This document shows positions 3,345 to 47,954 of a DNA stretch of 54,497 bases, piece by piece. How positions within the stretch are numbered: the first letter of the stretch is position 1; each line of letters begins with the position of its first letter. Under the pieces are notes generated by a model. That model did not search any database. It had not been told where the DNA came from and saw only the letters and a program-made list of their open reading frames with translations. Source of the stretch: Octopus sinensis (taxonomy: Eukaryota). The stretch lies in contig NW_021833824.1 of NCBI RefSeq assembly GCF_006345805.1, positions 1 through 54,497 of the forward strand, given 5' to 3'. Both the position numbers and the translations under genes were made by a program.

Positions 3345-4628
3345 TCAGTATGTTGGGATGGTTAGTCTGGGCTTGTACTTTTCAATGAAGAATGTTTCCT
3401 TGTTTAGTCTAATTTGTGTTGATGATCCGATAGCACATTGGTAAAATGGAAAGATTAAAAATTGTGGTAGTAGTTGCTTTGCGCATTTCTCAATGTGCTC
3501 ACTAAAAGGTATCATTCTGTATTCTGGGAATGCAATCTGTTGTCGATGCAGTGTGCATCTACGTCTGAGTGATAGTCCCGTGGATCCCACGTAGTCGGGT
3601 GGCAGCCCCCCGAGCATTTTATGACATAAATTATGTTTTCAGAGGCACAAGTAAGTTAGATTTGATCTTAAATTTCTGTCCCTCTTTAAAGAGGAATTCT
3701 GATCCTTCTAGCAGGTTTGGACATGTTGCACAGTTCGATCTACCACATTTTTTTTTTGCTTTTGCATCCGTAATTTCAGAAGACAATTTTGCCTTTGTGA
3801 GAATCTTTTTAGTGATTTAGGTTGTTTGTAGCTTTTAATGATTTGGTGTATGTTTAGAATTTCCTTTAATTTGGGGTCCTTATGAAGTATTGGTAAATTC
3901 TGGGTGATGATGGTGAAGGCTTCTTTGTTTCTGGGGTTGTATGTAGATATGTAAGGTAGTATTTTCGGGGAAGGTGTGTTGTTGTGTTGAACTTTTCTTA
4001 AAGTTTCTATGTTGATTTCTGTTGCACGTCTGATCGCATCCTCTATGAGTTGAGCTGGGTAATGTCTGTCAATTAGGGTGTTTTTGAGTTCTTGCAGTCT
4101 AAAGTTCCTGGTATTTTGTTCTGACACTATTGTGCATATCCTTCTTGCAAGGTTGAAGGGGATGTTGTTTTAGTATGGTCTTGGGTGGCTGAATTAAAAA
4201 GAAGGTATTGTTTGGCGTCTGTGCCTTTGTAAAAAATGTCTGTTCTATTTTAAGGTTAATTTTTTTAATTAGTATATCCAAGAATGGGAGCTCCTTTTGG
4301 TTGTATTCCATTGTGAACTGTATATTTGGGTTTATGCTGTTCAATAGGTTTTTAAATTTTAGGAGTTTATCTGTGTTTTCATTCCAGAGTATAAACCAAT
4401 CGTCTAAGAATCGTTTCCAATTCTCTTTTATGTATTGAGAAAGGGGGTTTCCAAAGATTGATAAAGATTCCTGGTAAATGATTATTTCCATGTAGCCCAT
4501 TGTTAGGTTCGCAATGACTGGTGCTGCCCTTGTACCCATAGCAATTCCGGATTTTTGACGGTAAAATGTATTGTCTAACATGAATTGGTTATTGTTTAGG
4601 ATGAATTCAATTGATTTAGTAATGAATT
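3345..4628 (-). pseudogene. Penelope RT / GIY-YIG endonuclease ORF, frameshifted and 5'-truncated
   Basis: ORFs 4099-4647 (RT; its apparent N-terminus comes from the inverted arm), 3708-4127 (linker, LPYISTYNP) and 3345-3617 (YVGSTGLSLRRR...KETFFIEKYKP). Confidence 0.9.
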
Positions 4629-4782
4629 CTGATACAGAGAAATTCACACCAAGGGAAAGGAAAAAATTTTTAAGCGATTATCTCCCTTACACCGGAAGAA
4701 ATCACTCATTACCTCCCCTTATTTAGAACTCTTTTGAACATAAACATAACGATAACTCTGTTCAACATAAACATAACGTCGC

Positions 4783-5762: not shown

Positions 5763-5996
5763 ATTTCTTTATTGCCCACAAGGGGCTAAACATAGAGGGG
5801 ACCAGCAAGGACAGACAAAGGGATTAAGTCGATTACATCGACCCCCACAGTGCAAAACTGGTACTTTATTTATCGACCCTGAAAGGATGAAAGGTAAAGT
5901 TGACCTCGGCGGAATTTGAACTCAGAACGTAGCGACAGACGAAATACCGCTAAGCATTTCACCCGGCGCACTAACGAGTCTGCCAGCACGCCGCCT
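5763..5996 (-). mobile_element. SINE family A, full copy with Tx1-like tail
   Basis: Head to CCCTTGTGGGCAATAAAGAAAT tail, in TA-rich context. Confidence 0.85.
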
Positions 5997-12548: not shown

Positions 12549-12868
12549 AAAACGAAGCTCAAAAAGTGTGACGTCGACTTCACTAACTGGGAGGAAACGG
12601 CAAAAAACAGACCACTCTGGAAAACCACCATCCATGAGGGAACGGCGACTTTCGAGTCGAAAAGGTCTGCAGAGCTGGAGGAGAAAAGACGACGACGGAA
12701 GGAGCGCCAACAACAACCACGTGCGACTCTCCCTTCCGGCACTAGATGTCCGCACTGCGACCGATCTTTTCAAGCAAGAATTTGTCTTATCGGTCACCTA
12801 CGGACTCACCAGTAAATTTGCGCGAAGACCGTCATCCTCGACCTTGAGGGATTGCCATCATCATCATC

Positions 12869-20385: not shown

Positions 20386-20493
20386 GCGCTGTGAGAAAGG
20401 TCATAGAAAACCGCTCACAGTTCTCTTTTTCTGTCCCCAAACCTTATGTTCCTTTATTTGGCGCTTTTGAAGTATAGACCGATGTACTCTATA

Positions 20494-20888
20494 TTGGAAG
20501 CACTCCGTCGGTTACGACGACGAGGGTTCCGGTTGATCCGATCAACGGAACAGCCTGCTCGTGAAATTAACGTGCAAGTGGTTGAGCACTCCACAGACAC
20601 GTGTACCCTTAACGTAGTTCTCGGGGATATTCAGCGTGACACAGATAGTGACAAGGCCGGCCCTTTTGAAATACAGGTACAACAGAAACAGGAAGTAAGA
20701 GTGAGAGTGAGAGAAAGTTGTGGTGAAAGAGTACAGCAGGGATCACCACCACCCCCTGCCGGAGCCTCGTGGAGCTTTTTTAGGTGTTTTCGCTCAGTAA
20801 ACACTCACAACGCCCGGTCTGGGAATCGAAACCGCGATCCTACGACCGCGAGTCCGCTGCCCTAACCACTGGGCCATTGCACTTCCAC
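20494..20888 (-). mobile_element. SINE family B (tRNA-Arg-like head)
   Basis: Head ...CAATGGCCCAGTGGTTAGGGCAGCGGACTCGCGG...GGTTTCGATTCC; tail CGTAACCGACGGAGTGCTTCC; flanking ACTCTATA duplication. Confidence 0.85.
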
Positions 20889-21889: not shown

Positions 21890-22750
21890 TCTAAATATCC
21901 CAGAATATCTTCGCCATTTCACCCTTGTTCCTATATACAAATTCTTACTATACGAAGGTGCATTCCAGAAGTTTGGAAACTATTTTTCGAGTAATTTATT
22001 AATTCCAAAGAAATACAAAAAACACTGATTCCTTGCAGAGTAGGGTCCTCTTACTTCAATGCACTTATTGTTGTACTCCAGCCATTTCGTGAAGGCCCCA
22101 TAAACAACTTCCAAAATATCTTCACTATTTCATCCCTATTTCTATATGCAAATTCTTAATATACGAAGATGCATTCCAGAAGTTTGGAGATTATTTTCGT
22201 GAGAGACATTTATTAATTCCAAAGAAATACAAAACATTGATTTCCCATAAAGGCCCCATAAAGAACTTCCAAAATATCCCAAAATATCTTCGCCATTTTA
22301 CGCCTATTCCTATATAAAAATTCTTAATATACGAAGATGCATTCCAGAAGTTTGGAGATTATTTTTGTGAGAGACATCTATTAATTCCAAAGAAATACAA
22401 AACCCTGCTTTCCCATAAATGCCCCATAAAGAACTTCCAAAATATCCCAAAATATCTTCGCCATTTCACCCCTATTCCTATATGCAAATTCTTAATATAC
22501 GAAGGTGCATTCCAGAAGTTTCGAGATTGTTTTTCGTGAGAGACATTTATTAATTCCAAAGAAATACAAAACACTGATTTCCCATAAATGCCCCATAAAG
22601 AACTTCCAAAATATCCCAAAATATCTTTGCCATTTCACCCCATGTTCCTATATACAAATTTTTAATATATGAAGGTGCATTCCAGAAGTTTCGAGATTTT
22701 TTTTCGTGAGAGACATCTATTAATTCCAAAGAAATACAAAACACTGATTT
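21890..22750. repeat. Five-copy tandem repeat of a mariner TIR plus flank
   Basis: TA(C/T)GAAG(G/A)TGCATTCCAGAAG at 21951, 22162, 22330, 22498 and 22668 (spacings 211, 168, 168, 170). Confidence 0.85.
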
Positions 22751-23636
22751 CTTTCGGAGTAGGGTCCTCTGACTTCAATGCATTTATTGTCGTTCTCGTA
22801 CTCCAGCCACTTCGTGAAGGCCCTATGAAGAACTTCCAAACCGAATGTGTTTGAGAACCTTATCAAGAAGAACCTTATTCTTCGTCTTCAAAATGAATGG
22901 CCCTTATGTTCTCCATCAGCTTGGGGAACAACCAAAAGTCATAATGAGCATGGTCTGGATTGTAGAGAGAGTAGTGAGGAACAGTTTCGATACCCGTCTC
23001 TGTCAAGTCGTTCATTACCAGGATAGAATTGCAAGTAGTGTTTAGTTGTGTTCCCACAACTGTCTCCTACAATTCGGAATAACAAAATTGGCAGGTCAGC
23101 TTATTAGGTATATCATAATGATATACTAATAGTCTAATATACTAATATATAGTATGGCTGGATGGAAGCACTCCGTCGGTTACGACGACGAGGGTTCCGG
23201 TTGATCCGAATCAACGGAACAGCCTGCTCGTGAAATTAACGTGTAAGTGGCTGAGCACTCCACAGACACGTGTACCCTTAACGTAGTTCTCGGGGATATT
23301 CAGCGTGACACAAAGGGTGACAAGGCCGGCCCTTTGAAATACAGGTACAACAGAAACAGGAAGTAAGAGTGAGAGAAAGTTGTGGTGAAAGAGTACAGCA
23401 GGGATCACCACCATCCTCTGCCGAAGCCTCGTGGAGCTTTAGGTGTTTTCGCTCAATAAACACTCACAACGCCCGGTCTGGGAATCGAAACCGGGTTCCT
23501 ATGACCGCGAGTCCGCTGCCTTAACCACTGGGCCATTGCGCCTCCACAATATATAGTATATAGTCTAATATACAAATATAAGACTAATAGTCTTATAAAA
23601 TACAAAGTCTCAAAACTTCTGGAATATACTACGTTT
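22668..23636 (-). mobile_element. Internally deleted mariner with SINE B insertion
   Basis: YNPDHAHYDFWLFPKL (degenerate YSPDLAPxDFWLFPKL motif); opposite TIR-like AAACTTCTGGAATATACTACGT near 23610-23636. Confidence 0.75.
23163..23547 (-). mobile_element. SINE family B
   Basis: Near-identical to 20494-20888; AATATATAGTAT on both sides. Confidence 0.88.
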
Positions 23637-39347: not shown

Positions 39348-40185
39348 GAGTTCATTTATTTGCCACAAGGGCGAAGGATTAAGGGGACAATACGGAGACA
39401 GACATAAAGTGTGGGGGCTTACATAGAATAATGAAATGATAAAAAAAAATAAAGAGCAAGTTTACACGGTATGCACTGAAAAAGAAGGGACATATGAATA
39501 GCATACAAAGGTGAAAAGGAAAAAAAGGAAAATGGTGGGGTGGATGATAGACATGGGGTCCTCCTGACACAGAACGCCTCTAGGGATAACCGAGGAACCC
39601 CACTGTCTGAGATTTCTCTGAAATCCTAAGAGTAAGTGCCCTCCCCAATTCCTTCTTTCCGATTCGCAGGTCTACACTTAGTGAGGCACCATCCACTCTT
39701 GCCATTTTCGCAACTTTCACTCACCTTTCAATAAACTCACTCGAGGACAGCACTTCCCCCTCCACTCTCAATTTCCTTTTCGAGTAAAACTTGAAAAATC
39801 AAGTGAGTGCTCTACTAAATGGCAATGTATCTGTCCTCATGCCTTTCAGCCTTGTCCACCAAATAACCTCTTTCGCCACAACTACCTGGTAAAGGAAAAT
39901 TGCCTTGCCTGCCTGATTGAAGACGGGCGGCGGTGCGATCATCACTACAGACTCGAACGACAGACGGTTCAGTCCCACACGTGTCAGCAGCTATTCGACA
40001 TAACCCCAGAAGTCAGCAATGCCCGGACACTGAACTAGGGTGTGCAGATCGGTTCCGTCTGTCTGACAGCACATCCGTGCCCGAAGAGTTTATCTCGAAT
40101 CGGCAGCGCCTCCTGGTAGCACTGCCAGGCCAAGGACATCTGGAAATTATCCATGACAGTTTCCGACCGGAAAGTCCACAGGTTT
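39348..40185 (-). mobile_element. Tx1/L1-like LINE 3' fragment (ORF2 C-terminus and 3' UTR)
   Basis: DNFQMSLAWQCYQEALPIRDKLFGHG (zf-RVT-like) and VVVAKEVIWWTRLKG; ends CCCTTGTGGCAAATAAATGAA. Confidence 0.72.
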
Positions 40186-41059
40186 GCTTGTCAGTTGTTT
40201 GACCTTAACCAGTTGAGCATGTTCTTTGGTGGCTGACGATACGTGCAGCTCTGATCACGAACAGAAGTAGTAGGGGAACATCATAGCCATGTGCCGAGAG
40301 GGGTGTTTCGTTCAACTTCTTTAAACAACCCTTAATAAAGGACCATTTGAGCTGGATGGGCTACTCGACCTGAAGAAAATTCTAACTGGGCCCCAATGCA
40401 AGGTCATGCGCTGTTTATCTTGATATGAGATCACCATGTCACTGAGCTTCACCTCCGCTCATTGTTCATCCGCTTCTATTCTTTACCTGACGATGTAATA
40501 GTTACTGGAAGGAGATATTTGAGCTTCATGCTAGTCGATTTCTGGAACTGAGGGCTATGCTAGCATTTCGGCCATCCTCAGAGCTGAGACTGGAAGTGAA
40601 ATCAGTGATACAGCTCGTGTTGCTCTGAAAACAAAAACTTTGGGGTCAGCTGTTTTACTGGCTCTGCTATTCTCTGTTTCTCTGCGGTTTTTTTTCTCAG
40701 TTTTTTCTAAACAGGTCCTCATATGCACACTTACTTGTACATGACTAGTATTTAGGCTTTCTTCTTTGCATTACTAGTCGCATGGCCTTTTCTTCCGCGC
40801 TGTCGACGAGAAACCACACCGAGAAAATGTTCCGTAGTCTTCGGACGCCATTAGGTCCGGTATACGTATTATGACACATTTGTTGTTCTAGTTACCTCTG
40901 AACTAGCTAGCTGCCCTGTTGTGCCACAAGGGAGACGGTGGGTAAGAGGAAAGTAGTTACCGGCATCCTTCACCTTGTTCTTCGTACGCATATTCCCAAA
41001 TATTGAATATCTATGAGCAGGGCGCTTGCTCACAAATACACATACATGTATAAATGTGT

Positions 41060-41215
41060 ATATCTCCCTGTTTCTTTCTGAGTTCCTTTCTGTGGAAGAG
41101 CGTAAGCTCGAAACCTTAAAGACTTTTTTCATTTCCCGAAATTTAAACTAATACATCTGTTTGTTGTTTACACCACATGTCTTCGTCTTTTGTTTTTTGT
41201 GAATTCTCCCTGTAT
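41060..41215 (+). mobile_element. Probable Penelope pLTR 3' fragment with HHR-like variant
   Basis: CTGTGGAA-GAGC-GTAA-GCTC-GAAAC motif; T-rich end followed by TA/CA repeats; homologous to 27733-27825. Confidence 0.5.
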
Positions 41216-41923
41216 ACACACACACACGTATATATATATATATATATAGTATGAAAATTTTGGGTGTGTGGTAGCGATTGTGTGTGTATACAGAGTATTT
41301 CGATCTCAAAAGGGAAAATTGCATAAACGTCAGAAAATAATATTTTCATAAACTTTTTAATAACTTTGCTTGAAGCGCCAATCAATTCTTGCCTAATTAG
41401 TATGAAATTACAAAATTTTATTTGAGAATTTAATATTAAAATATAATTAAACTTAATTTATCAATTCTGTAGAAAAATAAACAAGGAATATTCATAGTCA
41501 CGCGGTATTCAGTCAAGGGTAGCCGAAGGAAATTTTTAAGTAGGCACCAGATCAGCAAGAAATAATAGCCAAATTTCTCTCAAGTTACAATCTTTGGTAT
41601 TAGAAGAGGAAAGATTTATTAGAAAATGCGGTCCTGTGTCAGAATTAAAAAATAATACGAGATGGACACGGATGGAACATCATTGATCAATAGGTTTTTT
41701 GGACTATAGGTGCTCTGAGACATGCAGCAAAGAAAACAAAAATGGTAGCGAAAACATCGTGAAGTAGGAGCATGAATAAGAGATTGTTCCTTCAGGACTT
41801 TGATATAAAAAGTCAAACAAGCACTCCGTCGGTTACGACGACGAGTATTTCAGTTAATCCGAACAACGGAATAGCCTGCTCGTGAGATTAACGCACACGT
41901 GGCTGAGTGCTCCACAGACACGT

Positions 41924-42190
41924 AATACGAGGTACAAAGACTTAATAAAGGAACATGGAGTGGATACATTAAGGGACACACCTTATAAATGATGAAAGGA
42001 AGAAATGGAGCTGCTTGGTGAGGCAAGTACTCCATTTTCATATTCATTTCATTGTTATCATGCATGTAAAACATGCATTTTTAATTTTAATTTTTATGTT
42101 TATTTATTTGTCTGTGTTATTTTTGTATGTCCCCACATGCGTTGTACTAATATCTGTGTATACCCTTTATTGGAAATAAAGAAATAAGAA
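41924..42190 (+). mobile_element. 3' part of a second ORF1-only element, preceded by a SINE B tail (41819-41923, minus strand)
   Basis: NTRYKDLIKEHGVDTLRDTPYK* plus 3' UTR homologous to 44020-44286. Confidence 0.75.
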
Positions 42191-42324
42191 TCGTTAGCAC
42201 GCCGAACGAAAGAGTCGTGTCTTTTTCCTTAGTAAGAGTCTACTGTAAAATTTGTGTTGTTTTGTGCTGTTTTGCAGCGGTTTTCTGGTGGTGCTTTCTC
42301 TCCGCTTTAGAGTTAACCGTCACA

Positions 42325-44076
42325 ATGGCAAAGAATATGTTTTATTCGGACCTTAGTGGTTCGGAATTGTCCTCTTCGGAGGAAGAACTTATAATGGCTG
42401 CAGGTAGGATGGATAAATGCTTGAGGGAAAAGAGTGTTGCAGAAGTGACGGAGGAAAAAAAAAAGTGATCGACTTGACAAATATAGAAAAGGATGGAAGA
42501 ATGGCCCATAGAGTGGGGTGGCGTTAAGTTGCCACCACCCCAGAAGGTATTGGATGAAATTAACAGGAAAACCTTAGTTTATAAGGTATACTATGTAAAA
42601 GAGAGGAACATAGAACACGTGAAAGCTGAAGAAATAGAGAAGGCTTTAAGTACGGTATGGCAAGATATAACATATCTTGCAAGAGGCAATAAATATGGAA
42701 CAATTGTGGTCCATTTTAGGACAGAAGACATAGCAAGGAAACATGCCACAACTACAGTGAAAGCAGATAAAGTGGTCCTTCTACCCACTTACCTTGGAAG
42801 AAGGACTTCCAAGATTAGGGTAGAAGAAATCCCGCCGGACATAGATGTGGCTTGGGTTGTTGCGGCTCTCCTTCTTGATAGTAAGGAGGAAATAGCCGCC
42901 GTCCTCCAAGCCACAGAAATAGAAGGGGCGACGTGGAAAGGAAAGACGTTAGACCTTATTGTCCAAGCCGAAATGGAAACCTTGGTAAAGACGGTGACGG
43001 TCGGTTATACGATTCTGAGAGTGTGGGTGGAGGGAAGAATCCCTCGTTGTTTTAAGTGTGGCCAGAAGGGTCACATTAGGGCATACTGCCCTATACAAAA
43101 AAGAACAATTTAGGAAAAAGAAGAAAAAGAGCCGGAGAAAAAAAAACAAGAGGAAACACAAAAGGACGAAAAGGAAAAGGAAGAATTATGGACATTAGCC
43201 GAAGGAAGAAGGAAAAAGAGGAAGAAAAGACAGTGTAAAATGGAACCCCAAACCATCCCCACCCCACCCATATCCTCTCAGTCCCACCCTCTCCCCGCAA
43301 ACACCAAATCCACCTATTCCCATCCTTTACAAAGCAAAAAAGGAAAGAAGGCAAACAAACAATCCAAGATATACAAAACCCCACTCCCCGTGAAAATAGT
43401 TACGCGTGTATGTTAAGGGAAGAAGCAGAAAAGGAACGGATTAACGAGGTTAAAGAATGGAGGACGGCAAAAATTGCTAATGTGGAAGGCTGCACAAACA
43501 TTGTTGGATGGCGCATCATGTGTGTGCTAGTTTCTCAAAGTCAAAAAGATGTTATAACAAAATATAAAAAAAGGAAATAAATGTTGGGGGTTAAACGCGG
43601 ACATCAAAAGGGCACCGGACAATGTGAGGTATTGGAAGCACTCCGTCGGTTACGACGACGAGGGTTCCGGTTGATCCGAATCAACGGAACAGCCTGCTCG
43701 TGAAATTAACGTGTAAGTGGCTGAGCACTCCACAGACACGTGCAACCTTAACGTAGTTCTCGGGGATATTCAGCGTGACACAGAGAGTGACAAGGCCGGC
43801 CCTTTGAAATACAGGTACAACAGAAACAGGAAGTAAGAGTGAGAGAAAGTTGTGGTGAAGGAGTACAGCAGGGATCGCCTCCATCCCCTGCCGGAGCCTC
43901 GTGGACCTTTTAGGTGTTTTCGCTCAATAAACACTCACAACGCCCGGTCTGGGAATCGAAACCGCGATCCTACGACCGCGAGTCCGCTGCCCTAACCACT
44001 GGGCCATTGCGCCTCCTCTAATGTGAGGTATAAAGAACTCATAAAGGAGTACGGACAGGACATCATGAAGGCCTGA
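42325..44076 (+). pseudogene. LINE ORF1 (gag-like CCHC zinc knuckle), frameshifted and SINE-interrupted
   Basis: ORF 42493-43113 contains CFKCGQKGHIRAYC; after removing SINE B the frame reads DIKRAPDNVRYKELIKEYGQDIMKA*. Confidence 0.75.
43633..44016 (-). mobile_element. SINE family B with 12-bp TSD
   Basis: AATGTGAGGTAT at 43621-43632 and 44020-44031. Confidence 0.9.
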
Positions 44077-44286
44077 CCGTATAAAGGATGAAAGGAAGTA
44101 AATGGTACTGCTTGAGTGGGGCATGTCGCTCATTTTCATTATCATTTTAATTGCATCATTCATGCATATCATACGTTTACTTTTGATTTTTTTGTTTTAT
44201 TTATTTGTTCGTTTTTATATATCCCCACATGTGTTTTGTATTGTCCCCTCTTTGTTGGCCCCTTGTGGGCAATTAAAATTAAAGAA

Positions 44287-44900
44287 TCGTTAGCACGCTG
44301 GGCGGAATGCTTAGCGACATTTCGTCTGTCTTTACGTTCTGAGTTCAAATTCCTCCGAGGTCGACTTTGCCTTTCATCATTTCGAGGTCCATAAAATAAG
44401 TACCAGTTACGCACTGGGGTTGATATAATCGACTTAATCCGTTTGTCTGTCCTTGTTTGTCCTCTCTGTGTTTAGCCCCTTGTGGGTAGTAAAGAAATAG
44501 GTATTTTGTCTACCGTTACGTTCTGAGTTCAAATTCCGCCTAGGTCGACTTTGCCTTTCATCATTTAGGGGTCGATAAAATAAGTATTAGTTCAGTACTG
44601 GGCTCGATGCAATCGACTTAACCCCACCCCTGAAATTCCTAGCCTTGTGTCAAAATTTGAAATCAATTTAAAGGGCTACTAATGTGACGCGCTAGCAGAA
44701 TCGTTAGCATGCCGGGCGGAATGCTTAGCGACATTTCGTACTCCCTTTACGTTCTGAGTTCAAATTCCGCCGAGGTCGACTTTGCCTTTTAACCATCAGG
44801 ATGAATAAAATAGGTATCAGTTGTGTATTGGGGTCGATGTAATCGACTTAACTCATTCAAAGTAATTGTTGGCCGTGTGCCAAACTTTCAAATTAATATA
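44287..44900 (+). mobile_element. SINE A cluster (three cores)
   Basis: GAGTTCAAATTC...GGTCGACTTTGCC three times; site-2 junction near 44500. Confidence 0.85.
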
Positions 44901-45869: not shown

Positions 45870-46262
45870 TATTTCAAATTTTTGCCTCAAGGACAGCTTT
45901 ATGGAGGTGGAAATGTGTCGATTACATTGACCCCAGTGTTCAACTGGTATTTATTTTATAGGCCCCGAAAGAATGAAAACCAAAGTCGACCTCGGCGGAA
46001 TTTGAACTCAGAATGTAGTAGTAGACGAAATAATTATTTCTTTACTACCCACAAGGGGCTAAACACAGAGAGGACAAACAAGGACAGACAAACGGATTAA
46101 GTCGATTACATCGACCCCAGTGCGTAACTGGTACTTATTTAATCGACCCCGAAAGGATGAAAGGCAAAGTCGACCTCGGCAGAATTTGAACCCAGAACGT
46201 AGCGGCAGACGAAATAACGTTAAGCATTTCGCCCGGCGGGTTAACGATCCTTCCGGTTCGCT
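45870..46262 (-). mobile_element. SINE A dimer abutting the HHR array
   Basis: Two cores; site-2 junction near 46032. Confidence 0.8.
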
Positions 46263-46730
46263 GACGAGGAGAAAATTCTTATGAATTAACTCTAAAATCG
46301 GGGCCGATGCGATAATAACGGAATTTTTTAGAAATTTCTGTCGGCTTACTTCGAGACACGTGCTTATAGTGATGAATTATATGGTTATTGACGATTTAAG
46401 TCTATTTTCGGCATATTTGGCATTAGAATTTTTTCTTTTGCCCTTGTTTTTAAGTTGTTTATAAATTTAACCTTTAAAGGTATTTTCTAATATGCTGGCC
46501 ATTGATAGAATTTATTTCGAAAAATTTTATCCTATTTTAGATGTAAATTTAATACTATTCAATTCCGGACTTTCACACTCTATGAGAATTTTCAGTCCGA
46601 TCACACGTGTCTCGGAGTGTGCAATAGAATTTCTATTTTGGATACATTTGGGGTACTTAAGTGTACTCATGACTTAGTGTTTGCTTCTTCCATGGGTATA
46701 AGTAAGTATTTCATTTATTTATTACCGTAT

Positions 46731-46791
46731 TTATCGCTGACGAGGAGAAAATTTTTATGAATTAACTCTGAAATCGGAGCCGATGCGATAA
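46731..46791 (+). ncRNA. Hammerhead motif, monomer 2 (G at cleavage position 17)
   Basis: TTATCG-CTGACGA-GGAG...CTCT-GAAA-TCGG-AG-CCGA-TG-CGATAA. Confidence 0.75.
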
Positions 46792-47208
46792 TAATGGAAT
46801 TTTTTAGAAATTTCTGTCGGTTTACTTCGAGACACGCGCTTATAGTGATGAATTATATGGTTATTGACGATTTAAGTCTATTTTCAGCATATTTGGCATT
46901 AGAATTTTTTTTCTTTTGCCCTTGTTTATAAGTTGTTTATAAATTTAACCTTTAAAGGTAATTTTTAATATGCTGGCCATTGATAGAATTTATTTCGAAA
47001 AATTTTATCCTATTTTAGATGTAAATTTAATACTATTCAATTCCGGACTTTCACACTCTATGAGAATTTTCAGTCCGATCACACGTGTCTCGGAGTGTGC
47101 AATAGAATTTCTATTTTGGATACATTTGGGGTACTTAAGTGTACTCATGACTTAGTGTTTGCTTCTTCCATGGGTATAAGTAAGTATTTCATTTATTTAT
47201 TACCGTAT

Positions 47209-47269
47209 TTATCGCTGACGAGGAGAAAATTTTTATGAATTAACTCTGAAATCGGGGCCGATACGATAA
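47209..47269 (+). ncRNA. Type I hammerhead ribozyme, monomer 3 (intact)
   Basis: TTATCG-CTGACGA-GGAG...CTCT-GAAA-TCGG-GG-CCGA-TA-CGATAA; predicted cleavage after A47263. Confidence 0.88.
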
Positions 47270-47954
47270 TAACGGAATTTTTTAGAAATTTCTGTCGGTT
47301 TACTTCGAGACACGTGCTTATAGTGATGAATTATATGGTTATTGACGATTTAAGTCTATTTTCGGCATATTTGGCATCAGAATTGTTTTCTTTTGCCCTT
47401 GTTTTTAAGTTGTTTATAAATTTAACCTTTAAAGGTAATTTTTAATATGCTGGCCATTGATAGAATGTTATCCTATATTAGATGTATATATACATATATA
47501 TATATATGTTCCTTCTCGTGATATATTAGCAACACAAATATTCGCTCATTTAATAGTTTAGTGAAACACAATTATTCATATTAAGGTATCTGTATAAAAT
47601 TAAACATCTACATGCGTTAAACAAGTTTCTCTATGTTCCTAGTCAAGTATGATATGTTAAATATTAGTTAAATATAACATGTTCCTTGTCAATATACTTG
47701 AATTTTTTCATAGCTGAAGATAGATGGATATTTCATGAGAAGCTCTTGGATTTCAAATGGCTTGAGAGGACTAACGACCTATGGATAAATGGCAAATAAC
47801 ACTTCGTAAATTTTGTACAAAATCGACTCTCCCCTTCCCAGTATTTCAGGCCTTGCGCCTATAAAAGAAAGGATTATTATGATTATATCCATCTGAGGTC
47901 GAACTTTGCTTTTCATCCAAATAAATGCCAGGCAAGTACTAAGATTGATATAAT

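Follow-up and report, generated by a model that had tools for sequence, protein, structure and literature searches.

An ORF1-only retroelement of octopus, decayed and probably targeted to the head of a SINE

We analysed 54,497 nucleotides (nt) of repeat-rich animal DNA from Octopus sinensis (contig NW_021833824.1, assembly GCF_006345805.1; hereafter the window), in which two related retroelement copies lie head-to-tail on the forward strand. The downstream one, copy 2, is probably a decayed member of a multi-copy octopus family that encodes open reading frame 1 (ORF1) only, occupies one fixed position within the head of an abundant short interspersed nuclear element (SINE A), and was likely moved by the endonuclease (EN) and reverse transcriptase (RT) of a site-specific, probably Tx1-type, partner long interspersed nuclear element (LINE). 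A sequence-only reading of the window had placed this element at 42212–44286; its boundaries are corrected here to 42205–44283. The same reading had put its length at about 1.7 kb and found no ORF2, which agrees with our measurement: without an inserted second SINE (SINE B) and one copy of that insertion's target-site duplication (TSD), the element is 1,680 nt long, and a search of all six frames of this reconstructed sequence revealed neither an EN nor an RT motif.

SINE B lies in copy 2 on the minus strand and is 94–96% identical to copies at 20492–20886 and 23163–23545. Its 12-bp TSD, AATGTGAGGTAT, earlier described as clean, was found on both sides of the insertion and is the only repeat of at least 7 nt between the two flanks. 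Upon removal of SINE B and one TSD copy, the end of the ORF reads DIKRAPDNVRYKELIKEYGQDIMKA*. The join proposed by the sequence-only reading thus holds, but the ORF remains broken by frameshifts and by an in-frame TAG at 43111. The damage comprises four frameshifts (near 42465, 42520, 43395, and 43572) and two premature stops. From the start codon at 42325, the homologues P0036 and P0016 align through the first two frameshifts, which compensate each other, and the homologue P0011 aligns across the TAG and the linker behind it. The second stop, TGA at 44074, probably also comes too early: past it, copies 1 and 2 remain aligned in frame and without gaps as far as PYK, and the ORF likely ended at 44089. 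The in-frame stop after PYK falls at 41990–41995 in copy 1, and in relatives of copy 1 found among contigs a Trp is followed by a stop at 41993. To judge from the four frameshifts and the premature stops, copy 2 is a dead, decayed copy of the element.

The residues encoded by 42487–43110 matched zf-CCHC, the sole Pfam match above its cut-off. In a structure model based on a 67-sequence alignment (mean predicted local distance difference test [pLDDT] 89.8), two alpha/beta domains stand ahead of the CCHC knuckle. The best Foldseek matches were proteins with tandem RNA recognition motifs (RRMs; 35 matches at E ≤ 0.001), VIA-align matched a La RRM at Z 10.1 (root-mean-square deviation 2.5, 83 aligned), and the Atlas matches were eukaryotic CCHC clusters and ZCCHC3 RNA-binding domains (0.90–0.92). 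This is a type I LINE ORF1 protein with two predicted RRMs and one CCHC knuckle. Type I ORF1 is consistent with Tx1 elements of non-mammalian animals and occurs also in plant L1s and Jockey-superfamily elements, according to PMC5203782, so that this feature of Tx1, present in our element as RRM plus CCHC, is not exclusive to Tx1. The mammalian L1-type ORF1 (type II, Transposase_22) gave no Pfam match at E ≤ 1. An ORF1 of ~450 codons also separates the element from SINEs, which are non-coding and have a head derived from a small RNA; neither a tRNA gene nor a convincing Rfam match was found.

The full search returned 476 homologues of ORF1 at E ≤ 0.001. Proteins of Octopus bimaculoides are the closest database relatives, and eight of the ten homologues looked up are named octopod proteins (Octopus or Argonauta). 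EN or RT was present in none of the 18 homologues scanned. A search for longer homologous proteins gave P0002 alone, which is weak evidence. Three predicted proteins carry fusions of ORF1, to a C2H2 zinc-finger array (P0036), to LDL-receptor repeats (P0029), and to an unassigned region (P0084); these are probably prediction chimeras and possibly products of exonisation.

Copy 1, immediately upstream, aligns to copy 2 at ~72% and has the same arrangement of ORF end and untranslated region (UTR), as had been noticed before; the UTRs of the two copies share 138 identities against 47 mismatches. To look beyond the window, contigs from four public sequencing runs were aligned to 41900–42150 at ≥80% likeness; 71 were placed and 32 listed, with 30 loose letters shown and coverage beyond 42070 masked. 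Among the 32 listed contigs, 13 from other loci span the stop codon and extend 31 nt or more beyond it in both directions. They comprise at least four distinct start types, and some are probably one locus in different runs. One diverged contig type departs at 41964, and none of the listed loose ends departs at the stop. The passage from ORF end to UTR is family-wide at the 3′ end. This bears out, for the 3′ parts, the earlier view that the layout is a family architecture and not a one-off deletion.

The loose ends before 41926–41932 lack SINE B in 14 of 14 cases among the listed contigs. Translated by eye, they read YANLKKLTDS, DIKKSPYSLK, ANLKELPDSK, and the like, which are homologous to NADIKRAPDN of copy 2; the ORF join across SINE B is therefore confirmed independently. 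The terminal codons also bear a trace of selection. Over the last 21 codons, copies 1 and 2 differ by 7.5 synonymous changes in 11.5 sites and by 11.5 replacement changes in 51.5 sites (dN/dS 0.17, Fisher P 0.006), and we conclude that these 21 terminal ORF1 codons are under purifying selection. The protein-level conservation claimed earlier was weak as quoted, but this ratio gives it substance.

A more diverged SINE B fragment precedes copy 1 at the same codon position. It is ~87% identical to the other three copies of SINE B (97–100% alike among themselves in this part), and no TSD was found at it. Because the fragment at copy 1 is ~13% diverged and the other three are nearly identical, the sequences suggest two separate insertions of SINE B at the same codon, and this codon boundary is possibly an insertion hotspot. 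In each run the fragment occurs in a single contig, that of the locus itself, and it is absent from other copies of the subfamily.

The same 15–17 nt, GAATCGTTAGCACGC, adjoins both ends of copy 2 (42188 and 44284) and starts ~16 nt into the SINE A head. Site specificity, which the sequence-only reading had raised only as a prospect and without describing a target, is visible at both junctions. A second Tx1 feature, preference for a target sequence that is duplicated upon insertion, is accordingly present in this one window. The target site lies in what we take, from the consensus, to be an A-box-like motif, with a presumed B-box-like motif downstream. ARAGORN found no tRNA here, and Rfam gave one chance-level match. 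The loose ends of contigs before 44283, in all four runs, show the normal upstream sequence of the SINE A head.

The element and SINE A variants also have tails in common. The last 46 nt of the element match five SINE A tails at 31–37 positions, and two tail types are associated with two sites. Tail type 1, that of the element, is followed by site 1 in three of four SINE copies (29906, 48358, and 6925, not 5777) and likewise in both element copies. Behind tail type 2, four of four SINE copies (44501, 29688, 7098, and 46031) have site 2, which lies 32 nt further along. With the copy at 5777 left out, this pairing has a Fisher P of 0.029 for the SINEs alone and 0.008 with the two element copies. 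The SINE A trimers at ~30124–29541 and 7327–6763 carry the two tails in opposite orders, which fits sequential insertion better than the spread of one fixed multimer. Secondary structure of the tails was not significant (z −0.05 to −1.24 and +0.84).

Several results weigh against the reading of a site-specific ORF1-only family, and they are set out here with the alternatives on which they bear. In the 2.7 kb before copy 2 (39500–42200), a 5′ half of the SINE A head was not found, and copy 1 has no recognisable left boundary. This would suit a SINE-targeting ORF1-only family in which the 5′ 15–17 nt are a tag carried by the RNA from an earlier landing site, so that every copy would come with a landing pad of its own. 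At the left junction, 17 nt agree with the SINE head consensus, CG included, and the right copy has TG, and seamless SINE A dimers without an internal head imply 5′ joining by homology. A TSD with one later CpG change gives the same letters, however, and a single full-length copy cannot separate the two. Such a tag, which we regard as rather unlikely, is compatible with the explanation favoured here.

The identity of the terminal peptide is the second point at issue, since the element could instead be the relic of an internally deleted two-ORF LINE, with the end of ORF2 fused behind ORF1 once or in a few short-lived lineages. Seven long homologues (P0002, P0047, P0077, P0007, P0018, P0026, and P0150) end in a common domain with a YxxLKExFPxDV-like motif, which is visible in an unguided alignment of whole proteins. 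Neither a Pfam family nor a named Atlas match corresponds to the domain. In the model of P0047 it is poor (pLDDT mostly <50), Atlas names no family for it, and one further homologue was found. When an ungapped 12-column profile of the seven C-termini was run over the 64,598 stop-free 12-mers of the window, YKELIKEYGQDI at 44029 ranked joint first, which argues against an ORF2 end. The spacing argues the same way: the terminal 12-mer lies ~194 codons past the knuckle, similar to the ~220–350 residues in the homologues. Furthermore, no Pfam family matched 43239–43577 at E ≤ 1. With a 20-column profile, the SINE-interrupted site ranked ninth, and most relatives of copy 1 have a T at 41967 that gives the final Ile of the motif.

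On the other side, the motif region was picked after the peptide of the window had been seen, and the 12-mer of copy 1 ranked only 155th with the 12-column profile. With a hidden Markov model of the whole C-terminal domain, the read-through peptide did not rise above shuffles (score −0.2), as the relic would lead one to expect. Its pairwise alignment to P0002 was not significant (414 of 2,000 shuffles), and phmmer of the C-terminal read-through against the stored homologues gave no match (best E 0.034). Between the knuckle and the terminal peptide lie one stop and two frameshifts, and a continuous frame requires both shifts. The other copies are visible only to 30 nt upstream of the ORF end, short of the RRM region, and could be 5′-truncated autonomous elements. 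None of the contigs is a second copy running from the RRMs through the UTR, and relatives below 80% likeness to copy 1, ORF2-bearing ones among them if they exist, fall outside the comparison. Similarity upstream of the SINE B fragment of copy 1 is weak (reached by 5–28 of 300 shuffles; local alignment, 313 of 500). An ORF2 end, too, could show the purifying selection seen in these terminal codons. On balance the terminal peptide is likely the C-terminus of ORF1, as far as profile rank and spacing can tell, and we consider the deleted-LINE origin improbable.

Least credible is the absence of any targeting, with tail and SINE body forming a composite 3′ end and element–SINE and SINE–SINE multimers spreading ready-made: tail–site pairs could be inherited subfamily structures whose junctions are not independent events, and the tail-1 copy at 5777 has no target behind it, but the target also stands at the 5′ end of the element, between copies only ~72% alike, and the trimers occur in both tail orders, as fits sequential insertion.

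A site-specific ORF1-only family could have arisen and moved as follows. An autonomous LINE would have lost ORF2 and kept ORF1 under selection. Transcription would be by RNA polymerase II, because the T runs of the 5′ UTR would stop polymerase III. The element's own ORF1 protein (ORF1p) would package its RNA and help to capture the ORF2 protein (ORF2p) of the partner; such a role for a retained ORF1p has been proposed for HeT-A, HAL1, and Ag-Sponge, as presented in PMC5786205. The partner's ORF2p would then recognise the tail, nick the SINE head, and prime reverse transcription there. Because each insertion would leave two copies of the target, later insertions could build head-to-tail arrays such as that of copies 1 and 2. 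SINE A variants with an acquired tail would be served by the same enzyme and insert into their own head, yielding the dimers and trimers of the window.

No partner LINE was found, and locus searches of metagenome, prokaryote, and viral collections gave no relative; this too counts against the proposal, and we infer mobilisation in trans and the clade of the partner for that reason. L1-Tx1 is a plausible clade: 13 recently active L1-Tx1 families are reported for O. vulgaris in the account of PMC13282606, and Tx1 families often target repeats, according to PMC4494074. Only tentatively do we extend the proposal to an octopod system of three members, in which a Tx1-type LINE targets the SINE promoter region, an ORF1-only derivative is long-lived under selection, and the SINE, having captured at least two versions of the tail, inserts into itself and multimerises.

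Among known systems, HeT-A also builds arrays of head-to-tail copies on one fixed target. Like our element, HeT-A (Jockey clade) and Ag-Sponge (CR1 clade) are ORF1-only, and their protein is thought to multimerise with the proteins of a partner, as described in PMC5786205; they belong to other clades and hosts, and HeT-A targets telomeres. The ORF1-only elements covered in the relevant part of that review derive from L1, Jockey, and CR1, not from Tx1. HAL1 of mammals, to which the sequence-only reading had likened the element, is likewise a non-autonomous LINE derivative with ORF1p only and then a 3′ UTR, according to PMC5753468, and copy 2 shows just this condition, ORF1 without EN or RT. HAL1 differs in descending from L1, with the mammalian type II ORF1 (coiled coil, one RRM, C-terminal domain), as outlined in PMC5203782, whereas in the octopus ORF1 a CCHC knuckle accompanies two predicted RRMs, and its element sits at a fixed SINE site. 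The comparison thus stands for the ORF1-only mode of working but not for membership in HAL1, since the ORF1 is not of the mammalian L1 type.

Tx1-Mar with SINEU of crocodilians is the closest ecological precedent. There, as presented in PMC4494074, a LINE and its non-autonomous passengers preferentially enter another mobile element, a Mariner DNA transposon, where they form tandem insertions and where two sites serve different families; none of the passengers is coding. In octopus, a SINE head takes the place of the transposon, and the passengers include both an ORF1-coding element and the very SINE that is hit. Neither an ORF1-only nor a SINE-targeting LINE of cephalopods appears in the literature searched, including the portions used of PMC5753468, PMC4758252, PMC11203168, PMC9115989, and PMC8967140; Repbase, Dfam, and the O. 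vulgaris library (PMC13282606) lie outside that scope and may hold one.

If the three-member system is real, its ORF1-only derivative would be the first such family outside L1, Jockey, and CR1, and the SINE would be the first to be rendered self-targeting by its own parasite. The element would represent a fourth independent origin of ORF1-only retroelements, and targeted insertion would explain the multimers of a dominant octopus SINE. The family would offer a natural test of why ORF1-only elements retain ORF1 under selection. With partner LINEs in hand, one could test directly how tail recognition is linked to target choice, since the two tail types are tied to two sites 32 nt apart.

Table 1. 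Coordinates of the element copies, SINE insertions, and target sites in the window
Feature	Position	Strand	Details
Full-length decayed ORF1-only element, copy 2	42205..44283	+	1,680 nt once SINE B and one TSD copy are taken out
5′ UTR	42205..42324	+	120 nt, contains T runs
ORF1, N-terminal part	42325..43110	+	Two predicted RRMs at ~42530–43030; CCHC knuckle at 43048; two compensating frameshifts
TAG, low-complexity K/E/P-rich linker, first part of C-terminal domain	43111..43632	+	Frameshifts near 43395 and 43572
SINE B insertion	43633..44019	-	12-bp TSD at 43621–43632 and 44020–44031
ORF1 end with motif YKELIKEYGQDI at 44029	44020..44091	+	TGA at 44074 probably premature; stop likely at 44089
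3′ UTR	44092..44283	+	Last ~46 nt (tail type 1) common to SINE A variants
Copy 1: ORF end, 3′ UTR, and tail of second subfamily	41924..42187	+	Head-to-tail with copy 2
3′ fragment of more diverged SINE B	41819..41923	-	Same codon position as in copy 2
Left target copy GAATCGTTAGCACGC(CG)	42188..42204	+	Matches SINE A head from ~nt 16; TSD or inherited tag
Right target copy	44284..44300	+	15 nt identical, then TG for CG; runs on into SINE A body
Host SINE A array	44284..44680	+	Body with tail type 2 (~44440–44500) and, adjoining it, site 2 (GGTATT); then a second body and the standard end
Multimers of SINE A (tail types 1 and 2)	30124–29541 (-), 7327–6763 (-), 48590–48207 (-), 46252–45859 (-), 44284–44680 (+)		

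Other repeats were seen elsewhere in the window. At 3711–4677 on the minus strand, ORF pieces broken by frameshifts contain the RT-like motifs GIAMG and RFLDD; by eye they are a decayed Penelope-like element. An ORF fragment at 12549–12812 on the plus strand, with a C2H2-like motif at its end and trinucleotide repeats beside it, looks on visual inspection like the 3′ terminus of an RTE-type LINE. There are also two tandem arrays, one at 22111–22751 (168-bp unit, 3.8 copies, 92% matches) and one at 46258–47471 (478-bp unit, 2.5 copies, 97%), the latter adjoining a SINE A head.
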